From NCBI GenBank assembly GCA_950079155.1, contig CATMWH010000008.1, positions 20,779 through 84,778 on the forward strand: a stretch of DNA of 64,000 nt, read 5' to 3'. A program made the translations under genes and the position numbers. The stretch comes from an uncultured Christensenella sp. (GTDB lineage Bacteria > Bacillota > Clostridia > Christensenellales > UBA3700). Positions 11,601 through 25,640 of this stretch are shown here, one piece after another. Position 1 is the first letter of the stretch, and the number at the start of each line of letters is the position of its first letter. Under the pieces are notes generated by a model. That model did not search any database, was not told the DNA's origin, and saw only the letters and a list, made by a program, of their open reading frames with translations.

Positions 11601-14049
11601 AACATATTTAGCGGATGATTTTGCATTGCAAGAAAATAAGACTATTAGGATTTATCCTGGAACGTCAATTAAAGAAGCCTTGGAAAGCAATAATATGTAT
11701 AAACAAGGTTATTATTTGGTAAACGAACAGGACTTATGCGGAAACTCTCAGAAGTATGTCGTTTACATTGATATTGAATCGCCGAAGATCCGCGCAGAGA
11801 TTGAGCAAGGTGACAGCACAAAGAAAGAAGTGATATTCGATAAAGATTTTGCGGAAGATAACGCCAATGTCTTTTATTACTTATCTTTTAGATTTGACGT
11901 GGTATTAGACAATGTTGATAAGTTTACTACTGTAAAAATTGAAGGAAGAGGCTTGACAAATGCAATATTCGTACAGGGCGATGAATTGCCGGTGTTAGAC
12001 GCGGCGCTTGGCGGCGGACAGTATACTATTACAGTTTATGATCGCTCTTGCAACGTATTCCAATTTAAAGTCAATATAGCAAATAAAGAGCCGACGATGG
12101 AATACAACAGTTTGAGACCCACAAATCGTCAGTTGACGTTATATTTTGCAACAAATGATAATCTCAATCAGATTGTCCGTCTTGAGATATACAAAATAAA
12201 CGGAGCGGGCGAGCGTATCTTGATAGAGCAAGACGATTTGGGCAAACAGATAGATTTTACGTCATTGGAGTATAACTTTACAACCGGTGGAAAGTTCTTT
12301 GCAGTGATTACGGACCGATATGGAAGAGTAATTGAGACTGAGCCGATATTCTACGAACGCGGTTTGCCGAACGGCAATCTTACTACTACGGCAGGCAGCA
12401 TAACAAACAAAGACGTGTATTTTACTTATGCTGTTGGCAATGGCGTAGTTGTATATACATACGACGAGACAGGAAAAGAAGTTATTTATACTGATTACCT
12501 TATTGAGTACGACAATCTGAATAAAGAGTATTCTTTGGGATTCTTAGCAGGCGAAGGCGTTGAACGACAGTTTATGATCCACCTTTACAACGAATCTGAC
12601 GATAATCTTTATATGGAATATAAATTTGGCATTGATACTGTGATTGCAGTTGTCAACGTTGTGGATTCCAACAATGTTGCCGTAGAGAAAGGCGGATATA
12701 CAAATCAATCATTCTCACTGAACTGGACGGAGGCAAATGTAAGAGTTAAATATACTATTGGATCAAGTGCGATCAGCGCTACCTATGCTCGAGGTGATGC
12801 GCTTAGTGGCAACGGTATGTATACGTTTACGGTAACAGACAGAGTTGGCAATACAGAGACATTTACGATATATCTTGACAATGTGGTAGATTATACGCTT
12901 GACGGCGGTAAGATCGTCAACGTAGGAGGAAGGTATTTGACGAATTCGCCAGTTGCGCTGACGATCAATGAGATGATCTCTGAATGGAAAGTCGCAGACG
13001 GCAAAGAGGTTATCAACGGTGTTCCAATAACCGAAGAGGGGATTTATTCCGTTACCGTGTCCGATAGATACGGTAATACAATAACTATTGTGATTGAGTT
13101 GGATATTACACCGCCAGAAATGGTGTTGAATGGCGTTATAGAAAGCGGAGCAACAAAGGACGAGGTAATTGTAACATTTGAAGATGGGGCTAAAGGATAT
13201 CTAATGAAAGGCAATACCGTTATTAGAGAAATTAAAAGCGGAGAGATATTTACTGATCACGGCAATTATGCTGTTCGCGCAGAGGATCTCGCTGGCAATA
13301 TTGTCAATATGAAATTTACTATTGACCGCAAAGTCGACTTTGCGTCTAATATTATCAACCGGCAGATAACGACAGAAAGCGTTGTTTTTGCGCTATCAGA
13401 AGAAGGAAGTATTGAGATTATAAAAGACGGACAAGCCGCCGACATCGCAAAAAATTATTCAGAGTCGGGAAGATATGTTCTTACTGCAACGGATGCTGTT
13501 GGCAACGCTCTTGTATTTACATTTACAATCTTGCCTAAGAACGCACAATCTTTGAATATAGAGTTAGATGCCAAGCAAATTGTATCCTTATCGAAGTTTA
13601 ACGGTGAGGACGTGAAACTTGATTATTCTGATGACACAAAGAAAAATATAGTTTTGGATAAGACTGGCAGATATACTTTGACTATTAGCGACATTGAGCA
13701 AAATCAAAGTTATACAGTTTATTTGAATATTGATAACGTCGCGCCGAACGTGGAGTTGATTTGGTCGAAGAACACTGTATCGTTCTCAAGATTGAACAAA
13801 GACGGAGTAACTGCTAAATTTACAAAAGATGGAGAAGAAATTGCTTGGTCGCAATCAAGCGTCGCGAAAGATCCAGGTCACTACGTACTTGAACTTTCGG
13901 ACGAGTTTGGCAATGTCAATGTCATTGAGTGGGATATTAAATATAAACTCAATGGGCTGTCCATTGCATTGATAGTCGTAGGTTGCATTGCCGTCATAGG
14001 TGTAGTTGTACTGATAATTGCTAAGCGTTTAAAGGTAAAAGTCAGTTAA
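8683..14049 (+). CDS. giant surface repeat protein (putative mating adhesin), N-terminal signal/TM and C-terminal TM anchor
   Basis: About 15 repeats end in a D-x-[AV]GN...(F/Y)x(F/I)xxD(N)xxP(T/E) motif, e.g. TDAVGNANRYYFTIDKTKPT and LDKAGNKSTAFRFIVDNVAPT, which looks Ig-like or HYR-like. The C-terminus LSIALIVVGCIAVIGVVVLIIAKRLK is a TM anchor, not LPXTG. Confidence 0.8.
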   Translation: MTNRKIKVVIGMALLCVVLCLVGVISQQFGQLQIAFAEQTKSMNITTTLTGINSSSYFKFNDRYNANGYNNVGNYFSGSLVQKNSGVFIDYTLTITCSDTKAISSANNGDYYYSSDYKVSADSKDEKALILVFGSNKESDYQGLLSYANKSSTELKGTVIKSDKTITRDGKSSVTLEFNTGFDYIWYQIVYQWTPTLQHNNSYLVAGQSEIIAADRTAPTGTLIGVNDGGITNSDVRFTWSEENCSATLNGNSYSSNSNISAEGRHTIELTDAVGNANRYYFTIDKTKPTLSCSDGVALSSYTNKLATVSASDTYFSKLYYKQPDWTGWSSVTSKSFKISAVNGLWQFYATDTAGNQSDIFSFTYDNVAPEVGMRKADGTAFADGAWVNQGVYFDVKDSVGMKSTKLYEQIGGNWQVINGDYISGSIYFDNRNPGVLYGSRQSALNAIIDVENNRLKSKSNWETIANDNRIIAPGQIDYVMNGADYWEYATSNGEIYVFFIQSDINEFIRSRATNYLGSSARDMFQKEGYFKIEGEDIAGNVTSKTFRIKLTAPTLEIEPSGYANKIRYKVTDESGLTTYVKVDNGEWIRQDGNDLTFGPEHSDGTYYFKTIDAAGNTVTASVVLDTTAPTLMLKKNGNIVISDLYVNARDIVVFAIEDKNSAGRVELDGVEYSSLPAVSTLSDGLHEIFALDKAGNKSTAFRFIVDNVAPTLSIEELDGTAILQDETSLGYYTNEAVRFASEDPNFAFLCVYLNDSLIYKENAVSIDFPAIETNFGTYRIYAEDLAGNRSEEKLLIMQVISDFGNLQNAYKSFKINAWYEVTLPAYIFGTSPTEADISGRYSFERYDDAYSWSLAMEERYRVQKVSNGWIYVSATNESVSQVYTAREDLNKVLIKYASRYVSARKVASSSGNDNYYTIKDEDGRNDEYAFVRQSLTLPGYMFEYKDYELLQIRSAFAYKRTAAALAPTFTTLTYLADDFALQENKTIRIYPGTSIKEALESNNMYKQGYYLVNEQDLCGNSQKYVVYIDIESPKIRAEIEQGDSTKKEVIFDKDFAEDNANVFYYLSFRFDVVLDNVDKFTTVKIEGRGLTNAIFVQGDELPVLDAALGGGQYTITVYDRSCNVFQFKVNIANKEPTMEYNSLRPTNRQLTLYFATNDNLNQIVRLEIYKINGAGERILIEQDDLGKQIDFTSLEYNFTTGGKFFAVITDRYGRVIETEPIFYERGLPNGNLTTTAGSITNKDVYFTYAVGNGVVVYTYDETGKEVIYTDYLIEYDNLNKEYSLGFLAGEGVERQFMIHLYNESDDNLYMEYKFGIDTVIAVVNVVDSNNVAVEKGGYTNQSFSLNWTEANVRVKYTIGSSAISATYARGDALSGNGMYTFTVTDRVGNTETFTIYLDNVVDYTLDGGKIVNVGGRYLTNSPVALTINEMISEWKVADGKEVINGVPITEEGIYSVTVSDRYGNTITIVIELDITPPEMVLNGVIESGATKDEVIVTFEDGAKGYLMKGNTVIREIKSGEIFTDHGNYAVRAEDLAGNIVNMKFTIDRKVDFASNIINRQITTESVVFALSEEGSIEIIKDGQAADIAKNYSESGRYVLTATDAVGNALVFTFTILPKNAQSLNIELDAKQIVSLSKFNGEDVKLDYSDDTKKNIVLDKTGRYTLTISDIEQNQSYTVYLNIDNVAPNVELIWSKNTVSFSRLNKDGVTAKFTKDGEEIAWSQSSVAKDPGHYVLELSDEFGNVNVIEWDIKYKLNGLSIALIVVGCIAVIGVVVLIIAKRLKVKVS

Positions 14050-14103
14050 ACAATAATGCGGGAAACCGCTGAATATAAAAAATAAAATTAGGAGGATATA
14101 CAT

Positions 14104-14448
14104 ATGAAAATGAAAGTTTTTTCAATGTTTTCAATGCTCGCTGCTGCGGGCGACACCGGAACGCTAGAGAATAATCTCACAGATTTCGGCTCACAACTAA
14201 ATAGCCTTATTGGAGTTATTTGGCCGTGGCTTCTTGGTCTTGGTTTAGTGTTTATAGGCTTATGGGGTGCCTTTATAGGAGTAAAGATAATCAAGGCAAA
14301 AAAAGCGGAAGAAAAACAAGAGGCCAAAGCGTATATAAAGCAACTTATTTTGGGTATCTTAGTTATTTTTATAATAGCGGCAGGACTGCCTTTGGTTGTT
14401 TCAGGCATTGCGGCTTGGGCAGGTACGCCTATAACCAAACTTGGATGA
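14104..14448 (+). CDS. VirB2/TrbC-like pilin-type small membrane protein
   Basis: 114 aa with a signal-like N-terminus and two hydrophobic helices flanking a K/E-rich loop (KIIKAKKAEEKQEAKAYIK). It sits between the adhesin and VirB6-like genes. I recall resemblance to pilin-like conjugal transfer proteins of Mollicutes/Firmicutes ICEs. Confidence 0.55.
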   Translation: MKMKVFSMFSMLAAAGDTGTLENNLTDFGSQLNSLIGVIWPWLLGLGLVFIGLWGAFIGVKIIKAKKAEEKQEAKAYIKQLILGILVIFIIAAGLPLVVSGIAAWAGTPITKLG

Positions 14449-14462
14449 GCATTCAGTAGTTA

Positions 14463-14693
14463 TTGGGCGTCCTTATAATAGGACGCTCAAGATACTGCGC
14501 TAAAGACGAAAGAAAGGGTAAGCGATTGGTTTTTGACATAACGTTTGTTAAAGAAGATGTTCTTGAGAGGTATCAAGCGCTACATCAAAGTACCAAACAT
14601 ATACTTGGCGAAATAAGATATGAGTACATTGATGAATATTTGGAAGTGTGTGCGATATTAGACGATATAGCACAGAAGTATTTGAGTAAGTAA
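14463..14693 (+). CDS. hypothetical protein (start uncertain; no ATG in frame)
   Basis: Only TTG starts are available (14463, or 14526 after AAGGG). The stop is embedded in the first GTAAAGAC motif pair. It may not be a real gene. Confidence 0.25.
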   Translation: MGVLIIGRSRYCAKDERKGKRLVFDITFVKEDVLERYQALHQSTKHILGEIRYEYIDEYLEVCAILDDIAQKYLSK

Positions 14694-14710
14694 AGACAAA
14701 TGGTAAAGAC
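14690..14710 (+). repeat. GTAAAGAC motif pair 1 (direct, 13-nt register)
   Basis: GTAAAGAC at 14690 and 14703. Confidence 0.9.
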
Positions 14711-14735
14711 AATTTTATTTTTTCTTGTGCTCACG

Positions 14736-14768
14736 ACAAAGAAAAAGCCGTCCCTAGGTAGGAACGGC
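14736..14768 (-). terminator. rho-independent terminator of lipoprotein gene 1
   Basis: GCCGTCCC/GGAACGGC stem (14747-14768) is followed on the minus strand by a T-run. Confidence 0.6.
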
Positions 14769-14786
14769 GAAAATCGAATAAGACAC

Positions 14787-15185
14787 TTAGTTCTTAGGGA
14801 TATAGTCAGGCCATTCGGAATCTGGAATACGTTTGTATCCTGATGACGTATAATCTGGGTTAGCAAATTTAAGATTGCCATCGACCAATATTCTTTTATC
14901 GGAGCCACTGCTTCCAGGGGAAAGGTCAATGAAAGTATAGATTTGGGTTTCTTTATCAAAAGTCCAAGAATGTTCGTCTCTACGTTTCAATTCAGATGTA
15001 TCTTTTGTAAAAACAAATCTAGTTGCTGTTCCGTTAGAATGAACTTCAAAAAATACATCAATATCAGATCTAACTTCAACATATTTACCTACAACAGGAT
15101 CGATAGGATCGGAGCAAGCGACGAAAGAGAAAACACAAGAAAGAATTAAGATAAGTAGCAAACAAACAACGCAAGTTTTTTTCAT
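14787..15185 (-). CDS. lipoprotein (paralog 1)
   Basis: Signal peptide with lipobox: MKKTCVVCLLLILILSCVFSFVAC|SDP. RBS AGGAGG lies upstream on the minus strand. Confidence 0.8.
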   Translation of the reverse strand: MKKTCVVCLLLILILSCVFSFVACSDPIDPVVGKYVEVRSDIDVFFEVHSNGTATRFVFTKDTSELKRRDEHSWTFDKETQIYTFIDLSPGSSGSDKRILVDGNLKFANPDYTSSGYKRIPDSEWPDYIPKN

Positions 15186-15256
15186 AAAACAAACCTCCTA
15201 AGATATAATTATTCTAACACGCTTGGGAGCAAAAATCAAGAGGAGAGAATTAAATG

Positions 15257-15277
15257 GTAAAGATGATTTGTAAAGAC
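15257..15277 (+). repeat. GTAAAGAC motif pair 2 (direct, 13-nt register)
   Basis: GTAAAGAT at 15257 and GTAAAGAC at 15270. Confidence 0.85.
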
Positions 15278-15353
15278 GCTTATACTTTTTCTTGTGCTCA
15301 CGACAAAGAAACAGCCGCCCCCGATTAGGGAACGGCGAAAGATTTGGTGATTA

Positions 15354-15740
15354 TTATTTGAGCCAGTCTTCATTTGATATCTTTATGTATTGATATTCTT
15401 TTTCGTCATTAGGATATTTTAAAGAATCTGCAGACAAAATAAATTCACTTAGTCTTGGTGATACATAATAAGGTGCGGTAAAAATGTAAGTATTTCTTTC
15501 TTTATTAAATTCCCAAGTGTAGTCTTCTCTATCATTTAGTGTGCCAGTATCTTTATAAACAGTATATCTAATTGCGGTGCCATCAGCAAATATTTCTAGA
15601 TAGGCATTATATGTATTAGAAAACTGATAACTTTTATATTTACCGACAATGGGATCGACAGGATCGGAGCAAGCGACGAAAGAGAAAACACAAGAAAGAA
15701 TTAAAATAAGTAGCAAACAAGTAGCAATAGTTTTTTTCAT
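15354..15740 (-). CDS. lipoprotein (paralog 2)
   Basis: MKKTIATCLLLILILSCVFSFVAC|SDP. The first ~35 aa are nearly identical to paralog 1, while the mature part is strongly diverged. Confidence 0.8.
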   Translation of the reverse strand: MKKTIATCLLLILILSCVFSFVACSDPVDPIVGKYKSYQFSNTYNAYLEIFADGTAIRYTVYKDTGTLNDREDYTWEFNKERNTYIFTAPYYVSPRLSEFILSADSLKYPNDEKEYQYIKISNEDWLK

Positions 15741-15809
15741 AAAACAAACCTCCTAAGATATAATTATTTTAACACGCTTGGGAGCAAAAATCAAGAGGAG
15801 AGAGGATAT

Positions 15810-17252
15810 ATGAAAATATTTTTTCTAAAAATTTTAATGTGGTTGCAAATTGGTTTATCTCGGCTTGTGGATATGGTGATGCAACTTTTTTCGGTATTCT
15901 CGGGTATCGAAACAATAAAAGTCGATGGTAAAGAAGAGTCGTTGTTGCTCTATTTTCTAGGTAACAAGACTGTAACGAGCGTTTTCTGGGCTATATTGGT
16001 CATTGGCGTATTTTGTTTGTTCATCTTTACTACTATTGCAATAATCAAGAATATGGTAGTGATCAAAAAGACAGTCGCGCAGATTGTTGGCAAGATGTTC
16101 ATTTCAATGTTATCTATGATAATTGTAGTCATCTGCCTATTTGGCTTTATATTCGGCGCAAACTGTGTGCTTGCGGAAGTCAACGTCGCCTTTAATCAAG
16201 GCTCCAATTTAACTATTGGACAACAACTTTTTGCGGCGTCTATTCCGGATGATGCTTGGTCAAAGAATACCGATTATGCGCACGAAGACGAAGACGGCGT
16301 AATGAGAGGAATGAAAGCAATTTTTGGTACAAATGAAGATGGTAGTATAAAAAACAGTTGGAACGGTGTGACACCAGATAAAGTTTTTGGAGTTAAAGAC
16401 ACATCGTGGATGTTTGAAGATGATTTGAAGAAATTTAAAGAAGGAAAATATGAAATTGTGCAAATTTATAAATACGATTTCTTTATCGGCTTACCGGCGG
16501 CAGTAATTATTACCATCACAATGTTTATGGCGATAATGGGACTTGTTACTAGACTATATGACCTTGTGTTTATCTTCCTGACGTCTCCACTTATAATGTC
16601 CACGTTACCGCTTGATGACGGCGCCAAATTTAAGTTATGGCGAGAGACGGCGATATCTAAGACGTTAGTCGCATACGGTTCGGTATTTGCTGTCAATATA
16701 TACGTTATCCTATTGCCGCATATAAGTAAGTTGAGCATACCGGGCAATGCTTTCTTAACAGCATTGATGCAAGTATTACTCATAATCTGCGGCGCGTTGA
16801 CCATATCCAATGGACAGGTATTCTTTGCCAGATTGCTTGGAACGGATGCGCAAGAGAGTAGACAGGCAGCGCACGGATTTAGGACGATGTTTGCCGGTAT
16901 TATGGGAACTAGCAGAGCCGTCAAAGGCGCGGCGCGTATGACTTTTGGACAATACAATGCTTATACCGGGAAAAGGGAACGCGGACTTATTCAAGGTGCA
17001 GGAAAACTAGGCGGAGCAGTGGGAACGATGCTTACTGGCGGATTCAAGGATAAGGATGGCAATGCGATTGGATTTGGTAAAGGCGTAAGCAACAAAATGG
17101 GCGCTATGAAAGATAAGTTAAGGACAAGTTGGCAAAATAACAAGGGCTTGGCCGGCACTAGTGTCAAAACCGCAAAAGCAGGCGGCAAAGCCTTAAAAGG
17201 GTTGCGTAACTTGCGAAATATAAAAAAACACGGATTTGATATGGATCTGTAA
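15810..17252 (+). CDS. polytopic membrane protein, VirB6/TrbL-like position
   Basis: Multiple hydrophobic helices and a Gly/Lys-rich C-terminal tail. It lies between the pilin-like and VirB4-like genes. The call rests on topology and synteny only. Confidence 0.6.
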   Translation: MKIFFLKILMWLQIGLSRLVDMVMQLFSVFSGIETIKVDGKEESLLLYFLGNKTVTSVFWAILVIGVFCLFIFTTIAIIKNMVVIKKTVAQIVGKMFISMLSMIIVVICLFGFIFGANCVLAEVNVAFNQGSNLTIGQQLFAASIPDDAWSKNTDYAHEDEDGVMRGMKAIFGTNEDGSIKNSWNGVTPDKVFGVKDTSWMFEDDLKKFKEGKYEIVQIYKYDFFIGLPAAVIITITMFMAIMGLVTRLYDLVFIFLTSPLIMSTLPLDDGAKFKLWRETAISKTLVAYGSVFAVNIYVILLPHISKLSIPGNAFLTALMQVLLIICGALTISNGQVFFARLLGTDAQESRQAAHGFRTMFAGIMGTSRAVKGAARMTFGQYNAYTGKRERGLIQGAGKLGGAVGTMLTGGFKDKDGNAIGFGKGVSNKMGAMKDKLRTSWQNNKGLAGTSVKTAKAGGKALKGLRNLRNIKKHGFDMDL

Positions 17253-17263
17253 AGGAGTGAGAT

Positions 17264-20098
17264 ATGTTGAAATACATACCTAAAAAGACAAAGATAAAAA
17301 GTACGATATGGAAATCATATTCATTAAAAGACGTGCTTATAGTAGGTATAATGTTTGCAGTTGTAGTTGCGTTGTTAATGAGCAATTTAAAAGGTAAGTG
17401 GTTTATAGGGATAGGAACGGCAATCGTTTGTATGTTTGTAATGTTGCCATCGTCTAAGGATACTTTAATATATGAAGAAATATTAAATCTTATAAAGTAT
17501 ATTTTTAGTAAAAAAAAGTACGTTGGCGCGCAAGTGGACAAACTAGTACCATATATGGGCTTTGAAGAAGATGGAACTATTAGATACCCAGACTATTACG
17601 GACGAGTTATCCGTATAGGCTGTAAGACGTTTGCGCTTGAGACTGAGTATGCGCAAGAGAGAGATATAGAGAGCCTTGCTAAAGCGCTTTCTTGTCTTGA
17701 TACAGGCAAGGTAATGGATATTGTAAAGATAGATAGACCAATAATATTTGATAGTTATATAAAAGAACTAGAAGATAAGTTGAGTTTACTTGGCAAATCA
17801 AGAACCAAGGCAACTAGAATTCGACGTGCAATACTTGAATCAAGAATTGCTCAACTCAAATATATGAACTCACAGGATCCTGTATATAAGTCCGAATACT
17901 ATATCGTGATCTATGACGGAATACTCAAAGAACTCAATCGCGTTGCAGATCAAATAAGCGCATATTTGAGGGGAGCAGAGTTGGATTGCGAAATATTGAA
18001 CAATGCTAAAGACGTTGCTATCTTTTTAAAATATTGCAATGTGCGCAACTTCGATGAGCGCGAGTCAGAAGGCAAGACACCTCAAGAGTTGCTTGCTTGG
18101 GTAAAACCGACTGAAATTAAATTCCATAGTAGCGGATATACGATAAATGGTGTAAAGGCATTTAATTATGCGATCGCTGATTATCCGTTGACTGTTGATG
18201 CGGCGTGGGGCGCTGAGTTGTTTGATATGGATAAGACTAAGGTTGTAATGCACCTTGTTCCTGTGGATCAGAACAAGGCAATATCAAGAGTGGATAAGGT
18301 TTGTCGAGAACTTTTAGCAAGAGAAGAAGCATACAAGGCTAGTGAGGTTCTTGAGCAAGAAACTCACTTAGATAGTATGTCTGCGCTGTTGACGTCGTTG
18401 CAGAATGGCGGAGAAAACCTTTACGACGTAACTACCGTCGTGACAGGCTTTTGCTATGAAGACAACGAAAGAGCCTTTAAGAAAAGTATCAATAGCCGTA
18501 TCCGAGTACGTGGCTTTTCTACAGATAATTTATACGTTCGTCAATTGAACGGATTTGTGACGTCGAATATCTCAAGACGTTCGTCGTTGAGGAATATAGA
18601 GCGTGGCATCAATGGCGGAAGTATCGCATCTGTTTTTCCATTTGTGCATACAACTATGCTAGAGTCAGGTGGCGTACTTTACGGCACCGGCGCATACCCA
18701 GTCATTTGGAATATGTGGAAGAAAGATGGCACGCACCGTAACGCAAATACGATTATATTCGGTCGTCCTGGTTCAGGTAAAAGTTATTTCTTGAAATCAC
18801 TTTTGTCGCAATCACTTGGAGACGGTTGTTTATGTTTTATCATAGATCCGGAGAATGAGTATGGAGATCTTGTCCGCAACGTAGGCGGAGAAATGATTGA
18901 CGTTGGATCGGCAAGCAAAGGTTGTCTAAATCCGTTCCATATCTATCAGATATTGACAGAAGATGGCAATGTTGCGCCGCCGAGCCAAGTCTACTATTCG
19001 CATCTAAAGACGCTTGAAAGTTTCTTTAAAGTCATACTCGAAGGCTGTGATGCAGATACTCTTGAGTTAATAAACAATGTCGTCAATGACGTTTATGAAG
19101 CAAAAGGAATTAAGCCTGAAACTGATGTGTCTCAATATACTGCTGAGCAATTTCCGGTTTTTGATGATTTGTTTACAATGTTGACACAAAAAGAACAAGA
19201 CCAAATTAGTGATAAAGTAATCGATACTTACATAAAGGCTCAAAACTATGTCAAGAAGTTTACCACAGGCGGACGATACAGTGACCTTTGGGGCAAGCCA
19301 TCTACGTTGACGTCTGATAACGTAATGACGGTATTCAACTTCCAAAGCCTTTTTGCCAACAAGAATAACCTTGTTGCAAATGCTCAAATGCTTTTGGTAT
19401 TTAGATTTTTGGAGCAACAAGTAATCAATATAAGAGAGAAAAATCGTAGCGCGAAGAAACCGCATAGAATTGTAATCGTTGCTGACGAGGCTCACTTGTT
19501 TATTGATCCAAAATATCCTATAGCAGTTGATTTCTTCTACCAAATGACTAAACGTATTCGTAAATATGACGGAACGTTTATTCCGGCAACTCAAAACGTC
19601 GCAGACTGGTTGGCAAATGATGAACTTAAATCCAAGACGTCGGCTGTAATAAAAAATACGCAATACACGTTCGTATTTGCGCTTAATCCGTCCGACGTAG
19701 AGGATTTAGCGGAGTTATACAAAAATAATCCTATCAATGAAGAAGAGCAGAATCTAATAATATCTGCAGGTATGGGAGATTGCTTCTATATTGGTGCGTA
19801 CAATGAAAGATTTACGTTTAGCATAGTCACAAACGAACTTGTCGAGGCAGTATTTAGTGATAAGAATTTTGTGCGTAATTGGCTTGATAAAAAGGTCATA
19901 GCGCAAAACGGCAACGGCGCAACTGCACAAGAGGCAGAGAACGCCGACGCCGAGACGCCTCAAGAAGAAGTGCCGCAAAATGTAGATGTGCAGCCACAAA
20001 ACGTGGAGGCACAACCGCAAGGTGCAGAAGATAATCAACAATCACAAGAACGAGAATATGAGGAGGGAAACGACAATGAGAGTAATAGGATTGGTTAA
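17264..20098 (+). CDS. VirB4/TraE/TrsE-family conjugation ATPase with N-terminal TM (VirB3-like) segment
   Basis: Walker A FGRPGSGKSYF and Walker B RIVIVADEAHLF in a 944-aa protein. The C-terminus is a low-complexity P/Q/E tail. Confidence 0.9.
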   Translation: MLKYIPKKTKIKSTIWKSYSLKDVLIVGIMFAVVVALLMSNLKGKWFIGIGTAIVCMFVMLPSSKDTLIYEEILNLIKYIFSKKKYVGAQVDKLVPYMGFEEDGTIRYPDYYGRVIRIGCKTFALETEYAQERDIESLAKALSCLDTGKVMDIVKIDRPIIFDSYIKELEDKLSLLGKSRTKATRIRRAILESRIAQLKYMNSQDPVYKSEYYIVIYDGILKELNRVADQISAYLRGAELDCEILNNAKDVAIFLKYCNVRNFDERESEGKTPQELLAWVKPTEIKFHSSGYTINGVKAFNYAIADYPLTVDAAWGAELFDMDKTKVVMHLVPVDQNKAISRVDKVCRELLAREEAYKASEVLEQETHLDSMSALLTSLQNGGENLYDVTTVVTGFCYEDNERAFKKSINSRIRVRGFSTDNLYVRQLNGFVTSNISRRSSLRNIERGINGGSIASVFPFVHTTMLESGGVLYGTGAYPVIWNMWKKDGTHRNANTIIFGRPGSGKSYFLKSLLSQSLGDGCLCFIIDPENEYGDLVRNVGGEMIDVGSASKGCLNPFHIYQILTEDGNVAPPSQVYYSHLKTLESFFKVILEGCDADTLELINNVVNDVYEAKGIKPETDVSQYTAEQFPVFDDLFTMLTQKEQDQISDKVIDTYIKAQNYVKKFTTGGRYSDLWGKPSTLTSDNVMTVFNFQSLFANKNNLVANAQMLLVFRFLEQQVINIREKNRSAKKPHRIVIVADEAHLFIDPKYPIAVDFFYQMTKRIRKYDGTFIPATQNVADWLANDELKSKTSAVIKNTQYTFVFALNPSDVEDLAELYKNNPINEEEQNLIISAGMGDCFYIGAYNERFTFSIVTNELVEAVFSDKNFVRNWLDKKVIAQNGNGATAQEAENADAETPQEEVPQNVDVQPQNVEAQPQGAEDNQQSQEREYEEGNDNESNRIG

Positions 20099-20855
20099 TC
20101 AAAAAGGCGGAGTGGCAAAGACCACTACCGCCAGCGCCCTAGCGTATGGTTTGGCGCGAAACGGCAAAAGGACACTTTTAGTGGACTTTGACCCACAAGG
20201 CAATTTGACAGTTGCGTGCGGCATTGTTACCAATGAAGGTAATCCACCAGCGCTTAAATTGATAGATTTAAAGACAAGCGCTGAGATTGAGAATTTAGAG
20301 CCGGGTTTGGACTTTGTTGCGTCTGGTATTGGTCTCGAGACCGCGAATATGATACTTGCCGGTAAGCCGTGCCGGGAATTGTATCTCAAGCGAGCACTCA
20401 AGAAGTTTGAAAACGAATACGACTACGTAGTCATTGATAGCAATCCGTCTTTGTCAATTATAACGTTGAACGTGCTTTCGGCTTGTGATGAGATAATCGT
20501 GCCTTTCAAGCCGGAATTTAATTCAGAGAAAGGTGTAAATCTCTTGATTGAGACTGTTGAAGAGATTCGCCAAATCAATGAGAATTTAAGAATTAGAGGA
20601 TTTCTTGTGACAATGGCGGATCGTCGTCGACGTTCAACAAATGAGAGCGTAGAGTATGTCAAGGAGCAAGCGCAAGGTTGCCAAAGTAAAGTCTACACGA
20701 GTTGGATCCGTCAATCGGTCGTTGCTGCAGATGCGCCAAAAATCGGCAAGAGTGTCTATGACTACCGCCCGGGCAGTCCGCTTGTTGCAGACTATGAGGC
20801 GTTCGTTCAAGAATTTTTAAAGGAGGAAGAAGATGCAGACACAAGAAAAAAATAG
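20076..20855 (+). CDS. parA: ParA/Soj-family partition ATPase
   Basis: ATG 20076 follows GAGGAGGG. Deviant Walker A in MRVIGLVNQKGGVAKTTTA, then LVDFDPQGN. The track ORF start at 19986 lies inside the VirB4 gene. Confidence 0.9.
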   Translation: MRVIGLVNQKGGVAKTTTASALAYGLARNGKRTLLVDFDPQGNLTVACGIVTNEGNPPALKLIDLKTSAEIENLEPGLDFVASGIGLETANMILAGKPCRELYLKRALKKFENEYDYVVIDSNPSLSIITLNVLSACDEIIVPFKPEFNSEKGVNLLIETVEEIRQINENLRIRGFLVTMADRRRRSTNESVEYVKEQAQGCQSKVYTSWIRQSVVAADAPKIGKSVYDYRPGSPLVADYEAFVQEFLKEEEDADTRKK

Positions 20856-21051
20856 CAGCAGTAGTGGAACTGTATTGAGTTTACTTTCTATACATAGAGT
20901 GGTAGACATCCCGCAAAAAGATAAGATGAAAATGGTTAATTTTAGGATGAAAGAGAGCGAAATTGAAGCATTTGATTTATATTGCGAGGCAAACGGTATT
21001 AAAAATAAGAGTGAACTAATACGCGCGTTAATTTGCAACCTAATTAAGTAA
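20833..21051 (+). CDS. ribbon-helix-helix (CopG/ParG-like) DNA-binding protein
   Basis: ATG follows AAGGAGG and overlaps the parA 3' end. The C-terminal segment KMVNFRMKESEIEAFDLYCEANGIKNKSELIRALI shows the RHH pattern, and the N-terminus looks flexible. Confidence 0.6.
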   Translation: MQTQEKNSSSSGTVLSLLSIHRVVDIPQKDKMKMVNFRMKESEIEAFDLYCEANGIKNKSELIRALICNLIK

Positions 21052-21072
21052 GTAAAGACAATTTGTCTTTAC
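21052..21072. repeat. GTAAAGAC motif pair 3 (inverted; perfect 10+1+10 palindrome)
   Basis: GTAAAGACAA-T-TTGTCTTTAC starts immediately after the RHH gene stop codon. Confidence 0.9.
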
Positions 21073-21106
21073 AAATGTAAAATCATAGTTATTTTGTTAA
21101 AACGTA

Positions 21107-21135
21107 TTGACAAGATAAATAGATAGGCGTATAAT
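21107..21135 (+). promoter_or_regulatory. sigma-70-type promoter
   Basis: TTGACA (21107-21112), 17 nt, TATAAT (21130-21135). Confidence 0.7.
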
Positions 21136-21141
21136 AACAAT

Positions 21142-21264
21142 ATACAAGTCAGCGATGCCCCGCTAGAGAGGGCCTTTGATAATCGGTGATGCCCAACCAA
21201 CTTAATAGGGCCTAGACTTGTAGAGTACAGACGCCATAAAACAGATGCCGTCTGTTTTTATTTT
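21142..21264 (+). ncRNA. candidate structured small RNA / leader (ToxI-like position)
   Basis: It lies between a consensus promoter and a hairpin plus T-run (21227-21264). Closing stem TACAAGTC/GACTTGTA (21143-21150 / 21215-21222). Two degenerate units each carry GATGCCC (21154, 21188) and AGGGCCT (21169, 21207). Confidence 0.35.
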
Positions 21265-21278
21265 AGGAGAACTTTAAG

Positions 21279-22124
21279 ATGAAAGAAAAAATGAATATAT
21301 ATTATCTTGATAAGGCATATCAAGATTACATAAAACCGCAGACAAGAAACAGTCAAGCAGCAGAAAAAGAAGAAAGCAAAAGACGCACGTCGGGAGTGGT
21401 GTTGTTTGGCTTTGGCGGAACAAAGAACTATTTTGTGCCATTGAGAGTTGGCGAACAGGAACAGAAGAAGTCTGAAATGGGATTGACGCACGGTCTCAAT
21501 AAAGGCAAGAATGGTTATCTAGATTTTAGTGAGATGGTTCCGGTACAAAATAAAGATCTTCAATTGTTGGACATTTCTAACTTGCCAACGTGCAATCTCA
21601 AGAGGAACTTGCAACGACAAGCAAGGTATATACAGAGAGAACAAAAGAAGATAATGGAATGCGCAGCGGAAGTATACTTGAATTGCGTCCATTATCCAGA
21701 GAGTAAGATTGCATCAGAATGTAACGACATTCTTATGCTCGAAGAGAAAGAACGCTTGTGGAGAGAAGGAAAAGTCCAAAAGGTCGAGAAAAAAGTGGTA
21801 AAGCCAGCCGAAGAAAAAAAGACTGAAGAACCGGCGGACAAGCCAACGAAAAAGACTTACAAAGAGACAAACACCTATAAATTAGCCGTAGAAAAATACG
21901 GACAAAAAGTAGCGGATAAGATGATCGCTGACGCTCTTAAGCAAGCGATGACACAAGAGAAAGAAGACAAGAAGACGGAGAAAAAACAAACTACATCAAC
22001 TTCATCGACAAGCAAAAAGACAGTAAAGAAAGTAGTTGCATCGTCTTCAAAGAAATCGACGTCGGCTGAAAAAGGAATGGTTACAACCGTAACAATCCAA
22101 AGTTCGCCTGCAAAAGGAAAGTAA
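21279..22124 (+). CDS. ToxN/AbiQ-like domain protein with K/E/S/T-rich C-terminal extension
   Basis: The N-terminal ~165 aa follow the ToxN/AbiQ pattern as I recall it: IYYLDKAYQDYI; SGVVLFGFGGTKNYFVPL; GYLDFSEMVPV...LQLLDISNLP; LKRNLQRQARYIQ; CNDILMLEEKERLW. The family PL[ST]SPK motif reads PLRVGE here. Confidence 0.6.
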   Translation: MKEKMNIYYLDKAYQDYIKPQTRNSQAAEKEESKRRTSGVVLFGFGGTKNYFVPLRVGEQEQKKSEMGLTHGLNKGKNGYLDFSEMVPVQNKDLQLLDISNLPTCNLKRNLQRQARYIQREQKKIMECAAEVYLNCVHYPESKIASECNDILMLEEKERLWREGKVQKVEKKVVKPAEEKKTEEPADKPTKKTYKETNTYKLAVEKYGQKVADKMIADALKQAMTQEKEDKKTEKKQTTSTSSTSKKTVKKVVASSSKKSTSAEKGMVTTVTIQSSPAKGK

Positions 22125-22128
22125 ATAT

Positions 22129-22149
22129 GTAAAGACGATTTGTCTTTAC
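22129..22149. repeat. GTAAAGAC motif pair 4 (inverted)
   Basis: GTAAAGAC-GATTT-GTCTTTAC starts 4 nt after the stop of the ToxN-like gene. Confidence 0.9.
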
Positions 22150-22183
22150 AAACAAAATAAATCATATAGAATTGGAGAAAAAT

Positions 22184-22519
22184 ATGCAAAAAATGCTAAT
22201 TCAATTAGATGTAGAAAAAATTGAGAGAGATAATAAGTACGACATTAAAGATATGTGGAAAGCCATAGATGAGATCTTTGCTAAACAAAAATGTGTAAAA
22301 GAAGTCAATGAAGACGGCTCGGCAATGTATTTGGGTAATCCAAATACTGATAATTATTTGGCAGACTTTGGAATAGCTTATATTACATTAAAGTCTAGTT
22401 CTTGGTTTCTTGAGTATGCATTAAAATGGATATGGTATGATAACGATGAAGATGAAAATGGCTCCTTTGAAGAAAGTGACACTCTATATAGAGTTAAGAA
22501 AAAATTAGGAATGATTTAG
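22184..22519 (+). CDS. hypothetical acidic protein
   Basis: ATG 22184 follows GGAG. 111 aa with no motif I recognise. It sits directly upstream of the VapD-like gene. Confidence 0.6.
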   Translation: MQKMLIQLDVEKIERDNKYDIKDMWKAIDEIFAKQKCVKEVNEDGSAMYLGNPNTDNYLADFGIAYITLKSSSWFLEYALKWIWYDNDEDENGSFEESDTLYRVKKKLGMI

Positions 22520-22531
22520 GCGAATTTTATT

Positions 22532-23077
22532 ATGGAAAAGGGAAAGATAAAAGCATTAAATTTTGATTTAGATACAAATGTTATGAAATCATTAGGAGTG
22601 TATCCAGATGGATATAGACAATTAGGCAAGGCTCTTCACGAGGCAGGTTTTTTGCATAGACAAGGCTCTGGATATGTATCAAAGGGAAAACTTCTGAACG
22701 ATGACGTCAATGATATAGTTGAGAGTTTAACAGTAAAAAATCCGTGGCTGGTTAAATGTGTAAACAAGTTAGACGTTACAGACGTTGGAAAACAACACGA
22801 CTTAACAAAAGTAGTTCTTGCAGCATTGTCATCAAAAGCAGGTGTAAAACTCAAAGAAAAAGATGATAACTCTTTAGTTCAACAGTACAAGCAAACTTCT
22901 GCGTATAAATCTAACGTTGAGAAGTTCGGACAGAAAACCGCAGATAAGATGCTTGCCGAGTCAATTAAGAATTTGACAGCACAAGAGAAAAAAGGAAGAT
23001 GGACGTCGCCTAAAAAACAAACAATTAAAGCCCCTCAAGGCAAAACGGAGAAGAATAATTCTGGAAAAGGAAAGTGA
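22532..23077 (+). CDS. VapD-like (Cas2-superfamily) protein with K-rich C-terminal extension
   Basis: KALNFDLDT...GYRQLGKALHEAGFLHRQGSGY...NPWLVKCVNKLDVTDVGKQHDLT parallels VapD (YAIAFDL...AYTDIGAVLAKFGFVRTQGSLY...), recalled from memory. The C-terminal module is shared with the 21279 gene. Confidence 0.65.
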   Translation: MEKGKIKALNFDLDTNVMKSLGVYPDGYRQLGKALHEAGFLHRQGSGYVSKGKLLNDDVNDIVESLTVKNPWLVKCVNKLDVTDVGKQHDLTKVVLAALSSKAGVKLKEKDDNSLVQQYKQTSAYKSNVEKFGQKTADKMLAESIKNLTAQEKKGRWTSPKKQTIKAPQGKTEKNNSGKGK

Positions 23078-23078
23078 A

Positions 23079-23114
23079 CTGTCTTTACAAATCGTCTTTA
23101 CAATTTGCCTTTAC
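23079..23114 (-). repeat. GTAAAGAC motif cluster 5 (three units on minus strand)
   Basis: GTCTTTAC at 23081 and 23094, GCCTTTAC at 23107, in a 13-nt register. It starts 3 nt after the VapD-like gene stop. Confidence 0.9.
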
Positions 23115-23130
23115 CAACAGAAAATTTTTT

Positions 23131-23162
23131 ACGTCATATTGAAGAGATATGGCGTTTTTTAT
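23131..23162 (+). terminator. rho-independent terminator
   Basis: ACGTCATAT/ATATGGCGT 9-bp stem followed by TTTTTTAT. Confidence 0.65.
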
Positions 23163-23236
23163 TGAAAAATTTTTACTAATTATGCTAAAATCTACTAAAA
23201 CTAATTAGGCATTTATAGGCCATAAGGGAGATAATC

Positions 23237-24601
23237 TTGAATACACAAGAAAAATTAAAAGATTTAGTAGAGCAATGCGTAAGTTCAATCATTTCAATGT
23301 TTAGCGAGGCGATAAGCAAAGGCTCGTTTACATTGGCCGTACAAGAGACAAAATCTTTGACGGACAATCTAGGTGTCAATATTTTAGAAACACTATGTAG
23401 AAAAGCCGACAAGATTTATAATGACACTCGAGATAAGCATCAAGTGACGATAAAGGATAAATCCAAGACAAGACATCTAATAACAGAGTTAGGAGAAGTT
23501 ACGCTTGAGCGCATTTGTTATTTTGACAAACGAAGTGGCAAGCGCTTTTTTGCTGTTGACGAAATGTTGGGACTAGAGAAGCGCAGTCGAGTTGAGCAAG
23601 GATTGCAAGCCAAACTTATTGAGCAGGCTACGCTTACGAGTTTTGGAAAGTCTAGTGCAGCGGTAAATAATGCAGTATCTCGACAGACCGTTTATAATCT
23701 CACAAAGAAGTTGAAGACAATAGAGGCCAAAATGCCTGCAGAACGTCGGGATGTCAGCGATATTTATATTGAGGCAGACGAGGATCATATCCATCTGCAG
23801 AACGGTAAGAGCGCCGAAGTCAAGTTGGTCTATGTCCACGATGGGGTAAAGACGATTTGTAAAGACAGAACGCAACTTCAAAATGTTCGATACTTCGTAT
23901 CGGTTGATGACGACCCTGACAAGATATGGAACGACGTTGCGCATTATGTTTATCGGAAGTATTCTATGCTCAATGCTAAGGCGCATATATCTGGTGACGG
24001 TGCGTATTGGATTAAATATGGTCAACATATTTTTCACAAAGCGCAGTATCACATAGACAAATTCCATATTCAAAAATCCGCAACGGCCGTTGCAAAGGGC
24101 AATCGACAAGTACGTAGCAAAATATTGGCCGCAATGAGAAAGAGAGATTACAAAAGTCTGAAGACGGTTTTTCAAGAACAGTATCTCAAGTATACTGAGC
24201 GTACGGAACGTCGCACCATCGCAGAGCAATATTTTTATTTGCTAAATAATATGGAGACGTACGGAATCAAAAACCGGTGCAGCGCAGAGGGGCACGTCTC
24301 TCACGTTCTGTCTGATCGTATGAGTTCTCGGCCAATGGGTTGGTCAAGGGCTGGAGCAGAGCAAATGGCGAAGCTTCGCGCATTTTACTTTAATGGCGGC
24401 AATTTCTTAGATTTAATCCGATATGGAAAAATAGCAGAGGATGATATGCAAGAAATTTATACGACTAGATACAATTCGCACGTCAACGCTGTCAAACTTG
24501 GCGTCGCGCCAACACCAGCAAAAGTATACTCAGTAGCCAGCATTGCGGGGCAAAATACACGAATTTCAAAGCTTTTACGCAGTTTAATAAAAATAAAATA
24601 A
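23237..24601 (+). CDS. DDE transposase, ISLre2/UPF0236-like
   Basis: TTG start after GGGAG. Motifs IYIEADEDHIHLQ, GDGAYWIK and HIDKFHIQK match the ISLre2/UPF0236 pattern as I recall it. 454 aa. Confidence 0.75.
   Translation: MNTQEKLKDLVEQCVSSIISMFSEAISKGSFTLAVQETKSLTDNLGVNILETLCRKADKIYNDTRDKHQVTIKDKSKTRHLITELGEVTLERICYFDKRSGKRFFAVDEMLGLEKRSRVEQGLQAKLIEQATLTSFGKSSAAVNNAVSRQTVYNLTKKLKTIEAKMPAERRDVSDIYIEADEDHIHLQNGKSAEVKLVYVHDGVKTICKDRTQLQNVRYFVSVDDDPDKIWNDVAHYVYRKYSMLNAKAHISGDGAYWIKYGQHIFHKAQYHIDKFHIQKSATAVAKGNRQVRSKILAAMRKRDYKSLKTVFQEQYLKYTERTERRTIAEQYFYLLNNMETYGIKNRCSAEGHVSHVLSDRMSSRPMGWSRAGAEQMAKLRAFYFNGGNFLDLIRYGKIAEDDMQEIYTTRYNSHVNAVKLGVAPTPAKVYSVASIAGQNTRISKLLRSLIKIK
23846..23868 (+). 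repeat. GTAAAGAC motif pair 6 (direct, inside the transposase ORF)
   Basis: GTAAAGACGATTTGTAAAGACAG is the exact reverse complement of 23079-23101. Confidence 0.9.
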
Positions 24602-24646
24602 AAAATATGCCTAAAAAACTTGACACCGTCGAGCGGAATTATTGCG

Positions 24647-24675
24647 TTGACTTAATTCTAGAACTGTGCTAAACT
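24647..24675 (+). promoter_or_regulatory. promoter of the FTR-like gene
   Basis: TTGACT (24647-24652), 17 nt, TAAACT (24670-24675), with TG at -15/-14. Confidence 0.5.
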
Positions 24676-24701
24676 AAAAAAAATTATATCAAAGAGGTAA
24701 T

Positions 24702-24899
24702 ATGGTAAGACTTAACGAAAATAAAGAAATTGTAGACGCAATCAAAGAAGGTCTCAAGGCGCGCGGAGGCTATTGCCCTTGTCGAGTTCAAATGACGGAA
24801 GAGAACAAATGCGTTTGCAAAGAATTTAGAGAACAGATAGCCGATCCAAATTTTGAGGGATATTGCCACTGCGGATTGTATTATAAGTCAAAAGATTGA
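24702..24899 (+). CDS. ferredoxin-thioredoxin reductase catalytic-subunit-like protein
   Basis: 65 aa with the CPC...CVC...CHC cysteine pattern (GGYCPCRV, KCVCKEF, GYCHCGLY). Confidence 0.7.
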   Translation: MVRLNENKEIVDAIKEGLKARGGYCPCRVQMTEENKCVCKEFREQIADPNFEGYCHCGLYYKSKD

Positions 24900-24945
24900 T
24901 TTGCATAAATCCCAAAAATTTGAAATACTATTTTAAATATAAATC

Positions 24946-24974
24946 TTGACAAAACTTCAATTTATACATATAAT
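24946..24974 (+). promoter_or_regulatory. promoter upstream of ssrA
   Basis: TTGACA (24946-24951), 17 nt, TATAAT (24969-24974). A second TTGAGC-17-TATAAT lies closer to the gene. Confidence 0.55.
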
Positions 24975-25086
24975 ACTTATGATTGATACGCTAAATAGTC
25001 ATTTTAGTTGAGCGTTTATGTCTATAGGAGTATAATCATAATGATGTCGTTTAGAACGAAATCGAGAAATCTCACCAAGCAAATAT

Positions 25087-25434
25087 GGGGCTGTACCGGA
25101 TTCGATGGGGAAGCAGGTACGATATAAGCACGCCGAAGGCTCGTCTTCGTAAAAACGGAAAATTAAATTTAAACGCAAATAATAACAAAGAATTGGCTTT
25201 CGCTGCCTAATCGGCCGTAGCCTGTCGCCCCAAGAATCCACGGCTTGGGAGTCGGCATCAATCAGTGGAACAGGGTCGGGCGCATATGCCTTTAACGTCT
25301 GATAATATCAAAGGCTTGCCGAAGCGTTACTCCGTGAATAGAGAACGTCAGGGACTAATATATGTTCAATAAGCGTGTAGAAAGTGTCGTATGAACTTTT
25401 TCAGACAGGGGTTCAACTCCCCTCAGTTCCACCA
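25087..25434 (+). ncRNA. ssrA: tmRNA
   Basis: 5' GGGGCUG pairs with 3' CAGUUCC-ACCA, including the G3:U pair. T-arm GGUUCAACUCCCC. The tag reading frame ends ...ANNNKELAFAA-TAA and may begin GKLNLN. Confidence 0.9.
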
Positions 25435-25640
25435 ATTTAAAACCATATGTTTTACGATTAAATTTCACTGACGGTGAGAAATATATAGGTTTATAATTAT
25501 TTTTAAATTTTTTGTGAAAAATAAAAAATCTATTAAAAATTTGTATTGACTTATATTATATATAGATTATATAATAATTACAGCAATTTTAAATTAGGGG
25601 TAATTATGAAACAGTTATTTATCATCGGGGAGAGGGGATA

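Follow-up and report, generated by a model that had tools for sequence, protein, structure and literature searches.

Dispersed short iteron arrays in a TnGBS-like conjugative element of an uncultured Christensenella as predicted centromere/operator sites of a type Ib ParA/RHH system

Introduction

The 64,000-nucleotide stretch of contig CATMWH010000008.1 (assembly GCA_950079155.1, an uncultured Christensenella sp.) that was analysed here, called the window below, holds part of a conjugative element in which the 8-mer GTAAAGAC recurs in small groups with a fixed spacing. The question that this locus raises is what these groups, which we call iteron arrays, are for. The original prediction, made from the letters of the window alone, offered three answers: centromere or operator sites of a small ParG-like ribbon-helix-helix (RHH) protein encoded right before one of the arrays, binding sites of the element's DDE transposase, or cassette-boundary recombination sites of a cargo-shuffling mechanism. 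Our results favor the first of these. The arrays probably (at a probability of about 0.72) serve a type Ib ParA/RHH system on a TnGBS-like integrative and conjugative element (ICE) as dispersed centromere/operator sites, and they would be bound by the RHH protein encoded at 20833-21051.

Results

The window contains 14 exact copies of GTAAAGAC/GTCTTTAC, whereas 100 dinucleotide-preserving shuffles averaged 2.12 copies and never exceeded 6, in line with the earlier estimate of about two copies by chance. Eleven of these copies, together with two units that carry one mismatch (GTAAAGAT at 15257 and GCCTTTAC at 23107), form six groups between 14690 and 23866, with units that start at 14690/14703, 15257/15270, 21052/21065, 22129/22142, 23081/23094/23107 and 23846/23859. 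Within all six groups the start-to-start spacing is exactly 13 nucleotides (nt), and our recount agrees with the copies, groups and register that had been found by eye. Three exact copies are isolated, which is the number expected by chance; those at 35025 and 55057 had been reported before, whereas the one at 36074 had been missed. Two-unit sites are the minimal form, and they are present in nearly all intergenic gaps longer than 20 nt. With its form GT....AC the 8-mer has pseudo-dyad symmetry, as would suit a symmetric RHH dimer, and in the related locus L166 (loci other than the window are labelled L with a number) the iteron is a perfect palindrome. As a control, 713 kb of sequence from 79 generic, mostly chromosomal Soj-like ParA loci (35-40% identity), obtained from a metagenome ParA-profile scan, contains 0 same-core GTAnnnAC pairs at 12-14 nt.

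The repeats are real and conserved. Relatives were gathered both via homology to the RHH protein and via DNA pattern searches, and all of them (about 20 related loci) have the identical 8-mer in the 13-nt register at equivalent gene junctions, so that the motif is kept in related elements with the same genes. Among 28 distinct arrays from related elements (100 units and 72 junctions between units) the spacing is 13 nt at 72 of 72 junctions. Each position of the 8-mer is 97-100% conserved in the 100 units, while the 5-nt spacer is conserved merely as R-A-W-T-N and the flanks vary freely. Arrays hold between two and nine units, and both their number and their orientation change at equivalent gene junctions among relatives. 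The long tandem array of L032 has nine units (12432-12543) and that of L033 has eight (12432-12530), a difference of one unit between near-identical elements which indicates that array length is evolving now. Junctions between units are direct in 54 cases, convergent in 17 and divergent in 1, a bias that is expected for cooperative contacts between neighbouring bound proteins. Because orientation relative to transcription is not conserved and the direct arrays form no hairpins, the signal is one read on double-stranded DNA and not as RNA. Iteron pairs are also found within coding sequence, in L170 at the very end of VirB4, within its final 40 nt and close before parA (3152-3172), and in L166/L167 within the ArdC/primase open reading frame (ORF) (11753-11772), which shows selection at the DNA level over coding constraints. 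Multi-copy occurrences of the palindromic array described below were confined, in a genome-wide pattern scan, to metagenome-assembled genomes of Christensenellales, Christensenellaceae and Clostridia; the matches in Bacteroidia, Terrihalobacillus, Gemmataceae and Smithella genomes were isolated and single and were taken as chance. Scans of viral contigs for the pair patterns gave one match per contig, which was taken as the chance level.

The palindromic array at 21052 directly follows a ParA-RHH gene pair. The first gene (20073-20855, plus strand) encodes a Walker-type ParA ATPase of 259 amino acids (aa) without an N-terminal helix-turn-helix (HTH) domain (Pfam AAA_31 at 2.9e-46 over residues 2-174, with CbiA and ParA also matching), and it overlaps both the 3' end of the VirB4 gene and the 5' end of the RHH gene. 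The latter (20833-21051, plus strand) encodes a protein of 72 aa, our proposed centromere-binding protein and repressor, which matches Pfam RHH_1 at 22 bits against a cutoff of 20.5 and whose beta-strand is MVNFRMK. In its N-terminal tail the motif GTVxxLLS, with basic residues before it, is invariant within the family, which is suggestive of a role in stimulating ParA. An AlphaFold2 model of the protein has a disordered N-terminal tail, a short helix at GTVxxLLS, an extended segment (residues 34-40) and two helices. Its best Foldseek matches are RHH proteins exclusively, and the modelled architecture appears to be of the ParG/omega type. Of the traits of type Ib systems, a small ParA without an HTH, an adjacent RHH gene and a neighbouring repeat array are present.

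The evidence that we regard as decisive, by sequence comparison, for reading the arrays as RHH sites is the covariation of the iteron with the RHH beta-strand. The RHH family by itself, with 10 proteins, did not suffice for a direct covariation analysis. The covariation comes from loci with ParA homologues at 52-65% identity; 104 ParA homologues were found, and the metagenome ParA-profile scan supplied one informative locus, L084, its other loci becoming the negative control described above. A further candidate for the RHH family, P0010, proved to be an unrelated prophage gene. At 52-65% identity each ParA gene is followed by a gene for a diverged homologous RHH protein, and each locus has its own iteron. 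L170 (ParA 65% identical) combines the beta-strand VNFKLR with GTAAAGAC at 13 nt, L166/L167 (54%) combine VNLRIR with GTACGTAC at 13 nt, L084 (53%) combines VDLRVN with GTACGGAC at 12 nt, and L168/L169 (52%) combine IQLRIP with GTAATGAC at 14 nt. Lineages with an xVNF[KR]x[KR] strand retain GTAAAGAC and the 13-nt register down to 39% RHH identity (L032 and L170). Two features stay constant, the outer GTA..AC in the iteron and the central Arg in the beta-strand; the centre of the iteron and positions 2 and 6 of the beta-strand vary together. Both iteron core and register covary in this way with the beta-strand across five ParA-RHH lineages, and four specificity groups can be told apart.

The position and the company of the arrays were also compared among lineages. 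In every array-bearing lineage an array overlaps the RHH stop codon or lies at most 13 nt from it, and in L032, L170, L166 and L084 a further array is found directly upstream of parA. ParA and RHH are the only genes common to all array-bearing loci: arrays remain where the ToxN-like gene is missing (L020/L021) and where orf115 and the VapD domain are missing (L032). The ParA-RHH module is the sole thing that L084 shares with the window element; its locus lacks the type IV secretion system (T4SS) genes, the transposase or any other recombinase, and the lysine-rich C-terminal domain discussed below. In L167 a tyrosine integrase replaces the DDE transposase, and its gene is preceded by an array at a distance of 130 nt. 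L084 and L167 thus indicate that it is ParA-RHH, rather than the transposase or the T4SS, that the arrays accompany. The first hypothesis of the original prediction is supported both by the covariation of core and register in five lineages and by the presence of an array at the RHH stop or the parA start.

The individual arrays of the window differ in their setting. The first (14690-14710, plus strand) has its two units in direct orientation (GTAAAGAC-aaatg-GTAAAGAC) and is located 3' of the terminator of the first lipoprotein gene; an array of this type is kept at the equivalent junction in L001-L008 (position 4413). The second (15257-15277, plus strand, two direct units of which the first is the mismatched one) lies in a tandemly duplicated cassette of minus-strand lipoprotein gene, terminator and iteron pair that extends over 14690-15830 with a period of 555-567 nt. 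The segments 14690-14754 and 15257-15321 are 85% identical, and relatives such as L001 have a single lipoprotein cassette and a single array there. The 15257 group is therefore not independent of that at 14690, and the window has five independent sites and one duplicate. The third array (21052-21072, strand-neutral, two convergent units) is the perfect 10+1+10 palindrome that had been described before; it is invariant across all relatives while its flanks diverge. The fourth (22129-22149, strand-neutral) also has two convergent units, and it overlaps the -35 box of a predicted promoter, TTTACA-16-TAGAAT (22145-22172). The stop-codon distances given earlier are right for these two arrays and the next, which begin 0, 4 and 3 nt past the stops of the RHH, ToxN-like and VapD-like genes, but not for the array at 14690, where the stop codon of ORF 14463-14693 falls within the first unit and not before it.

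The two remaining arrays are associated with the transposase gene. One (23081-23114, minus strand, three direct units of which the third is mismatched) is located 123 nt upstream of the transposase start, and the unit patterns at this VapD-like-to-transposase junction are <<<* in the window, >< in L001, <<<< in L009 and >>>>>< in L021. The other (23846-23866, plus strand, two direct units) lies inside the transposase ORF, as the original prediction had it. Its two units are read in different frames of that ORF, so that the pair is imposed at the DNA level and is not a peptide repeat. It is kept in L001, L009, L012, L022, L024 and L030, and L170 has another arrangement. Together the two arrays build a perfect 23-nt inverted repeat (23079-23101 and 23846-23868), whose arms are separated by 744 nt spanning the transposase promoter region and the first ~200 codons. 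It is speculation that this geometry would allow looping, a roadblock or an invertible segment.

The label of a conjugative element given to the host of these arrays was right, and it can be sharpened to a TnGBS-like ICE driven by a DDE transposase. Its genes include those for an ArdC/primase-like protein, a MobL relaxase, a coupling protein (T4SS-DNA_transf), a 1788-aa surface protein, a pilin-like protein, a VirB6-like protein and a VirB4-like TraG P-loop ATPase, of which the relaxase, the coupling protein and the ATPase identify a conjugation module, followed by ParA (259 aa), RHH (72 aa), ToxN-like, VapD-like and an ISLre2-family DDE transposase. The transposase gene (23237-24601, plus strand; p-MULT3, TnGBS-type; Pfam UPF0236 at 2.6e-66 and NCBIfam transpos_ISLre2 at 259 bits against a cutoff of 200) encodes the predicted integration enzyme and is located at one extremity, ending 29 nt before the element end. 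The right terminal sequence, ATGCCTAAAAAACTTGACACCGTC (24607-24630, plus strand), is defined by the point at which homology to other insertions stops (24630), and this end lies 16 nt before the -35 box TTGACT at 24647. In seven different flanks (window, L001, L003, L004, L005, L009 and L012) there are 15-17 nt from the element end to a sigma-70 -35 box (TTGxxx), which is followed by a -10 box. TnGBS/ISLre2 p-MULT3 transposases insert in an oriented manner 15-17 bp upstream of sigma-A -35 boxes (PMC3942029), and the match to this insertion rule identifies the element as TnGBS-like. Transient replication is assumed for DDE-type ICEs (PMC3942029). An inverted copy of the right end was looked for in the window and not found; the left end lies outside the window. 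The VirB6-like membrane protein (15810-17252) matches the Mycoplasma ICE families MMCAP2_0566 and Mbov_0396 (1e-39) and the transposase matches ICE_Mbov_0401 weakly, which suggests that the conjugation module shares ancestry with Mycoplasma ICEs. For 14000-24700, Megablast found nothing similar in plasmid and phage collections, an Rfam search of 14000-25700 at a permissive threshold returned a chromosomal tmRNA only and nothing at the arrays, and a literature search found no such ICE reported for Christensenellales.

Discussion

In the mechanism that we propose, each 8-bp unit, set in its 13-bp register, would be bound on double-stranded DNA by one RHH dimer, and adjacent dimers would bind cooperatively, as is suggested by the fact that units are not found singly. 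The arrays scattered over the T4SS, maintenance and transposase part would together form a multi-site centromere of the excised, transiently replicating ICE, which RHH would link to ParA via its conserved N-terminal tail. By analogy with omega/delta of pSM19035 the arrays may have a dual role in partition and repression, in which they would also be operators or roadblocks; through these RHH would control the transposase gene, the orf115/VapD-like operon and the toxin-antitoxin module of the ToxN-like protein. In four lineages, with three iteron types and two unrelated recombinase families, an array lies 120-205 nt upstream of the recombinase gene. A more far-reaching idea, which we consider tentative and rather doubtful, is that RHH-iteron pairs form a small, evolvable recognition code in which the outer GTA..AC corresponds to the invariant Arg, and the central 3 bp and the 12-14-bp register correspond to positions 2 and 6 of the beta-strand. 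Such a code might sort co-resident ICEs of gut Clostridia into groups of incompatibility or immunity, with the arrays as element-wide roadblocks or loops and one partition protein as a master switch that couples segregation with silencing of the T4SS operon and with the expression of the toxin-antitoxin module and of the transposase.

Several observations weigh against the assignment of the arrays to the RHH protein, or at least against some of its parts. The assignment comes from comparative genomics, and the covariation groups outside the main group (four specificity groups in all) comprise one or two loci each. The Foldseek E-values for the RHH model are not significant (about 1), and a sequence search of the PDB with the RHH profile gave no meaningful homologue. 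L164/L165 (region 7771-8313) have a ParA at 55% identity and an equal T4SS gene order, and their related RHH gene (beta-strand ANFRIS) is displaced by a 306-nt GC-rich spacer; no arrays or other short-range repeats were detected in the 14.8 kb of these loci. The subfamily of the window has no array upstream of parA. As for the operator role, the array at 22129-22149 is the only one of the window that clearly overlaps a predicted promoter (-35 box at 22145). For those at 21052-21072 and 23081-23114 a predicted -35 box follows after 34 and 48 nt, respectively, and the remaining ones are in gaps between a stop codon and a ribosome-binding site (RBS) or within an ORF. Most arrays of the window have two or three units, whereas omega of pSM19035 needs at least four contiguous repeats for full activation of ParA (PMC9499535).

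Other explanations can be offered for the arrays, and each of them explains less than binding by RHH does. The transposase hypothesis of the original prediction holds that they are subterminal or internal sites of the ISLre2-type DDE transposase which aid transpososome assembly, like the end sites or enhancer of Mu or Tn7. In its favour, the array that precedes the transposase gene by 123 nt and the one within the gene make up a perfect 23-nt inverted repeat, arrays are concentrated in the 10 kb adjoining the right end, and the UPF0236 gene is preceded by an array in L169 and L170 too. It is nevertheless very unlikely, because the conserved terminal sequence at 24607-24630 lacks GTAAAGAC and arrays of this family are also present alongside a tyrosine integrase (L167) or in a locus that has no transposase (L084 and L166). 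The iteron core moreover changes in step with RHH and not with the transposase: the transposases of L169 and L170 are both ~42% identical to that of the window, yet their iterons differ, and that of L032 is 45% identical, yet the iteron is shared. The third hypothesis, that the arrays are cassette-boundary sites of a cargo-shuffling recombinase or hot spots of repeat-mediated exchange, fares no better and is improbable to the same degree. Arrays do flank variable modules (the ToxN-like gene is present or absent, and orf115/VapD is replaced in L032), small ORFs in L021/L029 are each bracketed by arrays, and the lipoprotein cassette is duplicated in the window. However, invariant core genes are bracketed too (from VirB6-like to RHH, VirB4 and ParA included), no dedicated recombinase co-occurs with the arrays, and their unit number and orientation are unlike those of site-specific recombination sites. 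The one breakpoint examined, between L001 and L002, lies 33 nt beyond the array, in the loop of a terminator hairpin, and recombination would leave the covariation with the RHH beta-strand unexplained.

An action of the arrays as RNA, as hairpin terminators or as processing sites for endoribonucleases such as the ToxN-like and VapD-like proteins, seems the least probable of all. The two palindromic arrays are able to form hairpins (at -9.7 and -10.2 kcal/mol, with z-scores of -3.8 and -4.9), and arrays are found in the stop-to-RBS gaps of operons, two endoribonuclease-like genes adjoining them. The direct-repeat arrays, however, reach 0 to -2.8 kcal/mol, no better than shuffles, T-tracts are absent from all arrays, elements differ at equivalent junctions in how the arrays are oriented to transcription, and arrays are kept without the ToxN-like gene (L020/L021) and without the VapD domain (L032). 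The earlier claim of protein recognition, and not of hairpins, is upheld by the same points. It is also hard to see the arrays as Rep iterons that mark the origin of the excised element, and we give this little credence. Tandem arrays of up to nine direct units, as in L032, do resemble origin iterons, and transient replication has been proposed for DDE-type ICEs, as noted above. But the element has many dispersed two-unit sites instead of a single origin cluster, no Rep gene adjoins the arrays of the window, the iteron covaries with RHH, and in L166 and L168 separate repeats with a 17-22-nt period adjoin an HTH_36 (Rep-like) gene. That another protein of the element binds the arrays is perhaps marginally less improbable. 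The best candidate would be the lysine-rich C-terminal domain with the motif YKxxVEK[YF]GQKxADKM, which is found on three unrelated N-terminal domains, with an array within 0-4 nt after each gene. This domain has no homologue in L084 or L164-L170, although four of those lineages bear arrays, it matches no known DNA-binding family, and in lineages without it the arrays next to the RHH stop or before parA would be left without an explanation.

If the arrays are sites of the RHH protein, the system has several well-known counterparts. In the type Ib partition system of plasmid TP228 a ParA of ~200-260 aa without an HTH (ParF) works with a ~76-aa RHH protein (ParG), whose flexible N-terminal tail acts on ParA, and the parH site consists of short repeated boxes in both orientations. 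The small ParA, the small RHH and the repeated boxes in both orientations are alike here. parH, however, is a single locus of 4-bp boxes upstream of parFG, whereas the window element has at least six dispersed arrays of 8-bp units, none of which is upstream of parA in this subfamily. In the IncP plasmid RK2, KorB/IncC provides a parallel for cognate sites of a partition protein that are scattered over transfer and maintenance regions, since its 12 OB operators lie in both and KorB is a centromere binder as well as a global regulator of conjugation genes. KorB differs in being an HTH ParB-family protein that acts on single 13-bp palindromes, while the predicted binder here is an RHH protein on iterated units.

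The closest resemblance is to delta/omega of the inc18 plasmid pSM19035. In the omega-epsilon-zeta operon a toxin-antitoxin module lies directly downstream of the RHH gene, and the same holds here, although the module is type III-like (ToxN) instead of epsilon/zeta. Both systems have a small Walker ParA followed by an RHH protein of ~71 aa with a disordered N-terminal tail, and in both the repeats are short, non-palindromic and in either orientation, with two adjacent ones as the minimal site and the arrays dispersed. Omega is an RHH-type ParB that binds 7-bp repeats, direct or inverted, with low affinity for a single repeat and high affinity for two, and contacts ParA through its N-terminus; the six dispersed parS arrays of pSM19035 overlap promoters and serve as operators (PMC9499535). 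The element described here differs in its 8-bp core, 12-14-bp register and degenerate spacer, as opposed to contiguous 7-bp heptads, in having mostly two to four units and not seven to ten, in the many arrays that lie in stop-to-RBS gaps or ORFs and not on promoters, and in its residence on a chromosomally integrated ICE. No sequence similarity to delta/omega is detectable beyond the RHH fold.

With TnGBS the element shares an ISLre2-family transposase as terminal gene, insertion 15-17 nt upstream of -35 boxes (PMC3942029), a conjugation module and a parA gene. TnGBS ICEs have been stated to be restricted to Streptococcus (PMC3942029), whereas the hosts here are Christensenellales and other Clostridia, and the T4SS proteins match Mycoplasma-ICE families. 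No iteron system was found described for TnGBS in the literature searched.

The statement that no described system has this motif holds for the sequence itself, as a full-text literature search for it returned unrelated subjects only (yeast, vertebrate and viral-vector), but not for the type of system, because type Ib ParA/RHH systems with repeats that double as dispersed operators are well known from omega/delta and ParG/ParF. What is unusual is the 8-bp core in a 12-14-bp register, the two-unit sites, the intragenic site in the transposase gene and the residence on a DDE-type ICE. The analysis provides a testable predicted protein-DNA pair with predicted specificity residues, and its four natural specificity variants make a neat experimental system. 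It would extend the omega/ParG-type paradigm of a combined centromere and repressor to a chromosomally integrated ICE, and it extends the TnGBS-type, DDE-driven ICE with promoter-targeted insertion beyond streptococci. The element family is widespread among uncultured Christensenellales and other gut Clostridia, and same-core GTAnnnAC pairs at 12-14 nt offer a simple signature by which such conjugative elements can be found and grouped in metagenomes.

Neighbouring genes and accessory sequences

A perfect consensus sigma-70 promoter, TTGACA-17-TATAAT (21107-21135, plus strand), is located 34 nt downstream of the palindrome and is kept in the alignment of the relatives. It precedes a highly conserved structured leader (~120 nt) and then the ToxN-like gene. 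The leader region (21107-21278) contains two imperfect ~36-nt repeats (GATGCCC...AGGGCCT) and a terminator-like hairpin directly before the ToxN-like gene, and there are apparent compensatory changes among relatives (CAGCG..CGCTAG vs CAGTG..CACTAG). The leader is a candidate type III antitoxin RNA; it has no match in Rfam, and no tandem repeat was reported in it by Tandem Repeats Finder.

The lysine-rich C-terminal module, YKxxVEK[YF]GQKxADKM[IL]A in its longer form, is found in the ToxN-like protein (21279-22124, aa ~190-235), in the VapD-like protein (22532-23077, aa ~115-150) and on an unrelated 280-aa protein of L032 (11586-12428). It may serve as a signal for translocation by the T4SS or as a tail that binds nucleic acids. 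Searches of Pfam and NCBIfam gave no match for this tail, for orf76 or for orf115. Second sets of direct repeats, distinct from the GTAnnnAC arrays, are found next to the ParA-RHH module in L166 (8412-8491, CTGGTTAA, 21-30-nt period) and in L168 (8540-8603, AGTCAAAA, 17-22-nt period). Both directly follow the HTH_36 (Rep-like) gene and are probably replication origins with Rep iterons.

To the right of the element, the promoter that follows the insertion in the window belongs to a small FeThRed_B-like gene (24702-24899), and the chromosomal tmRNA gene (25087-25434, Rfam RF00023, 153 bits) begins ~450 nt right of the ICE end.

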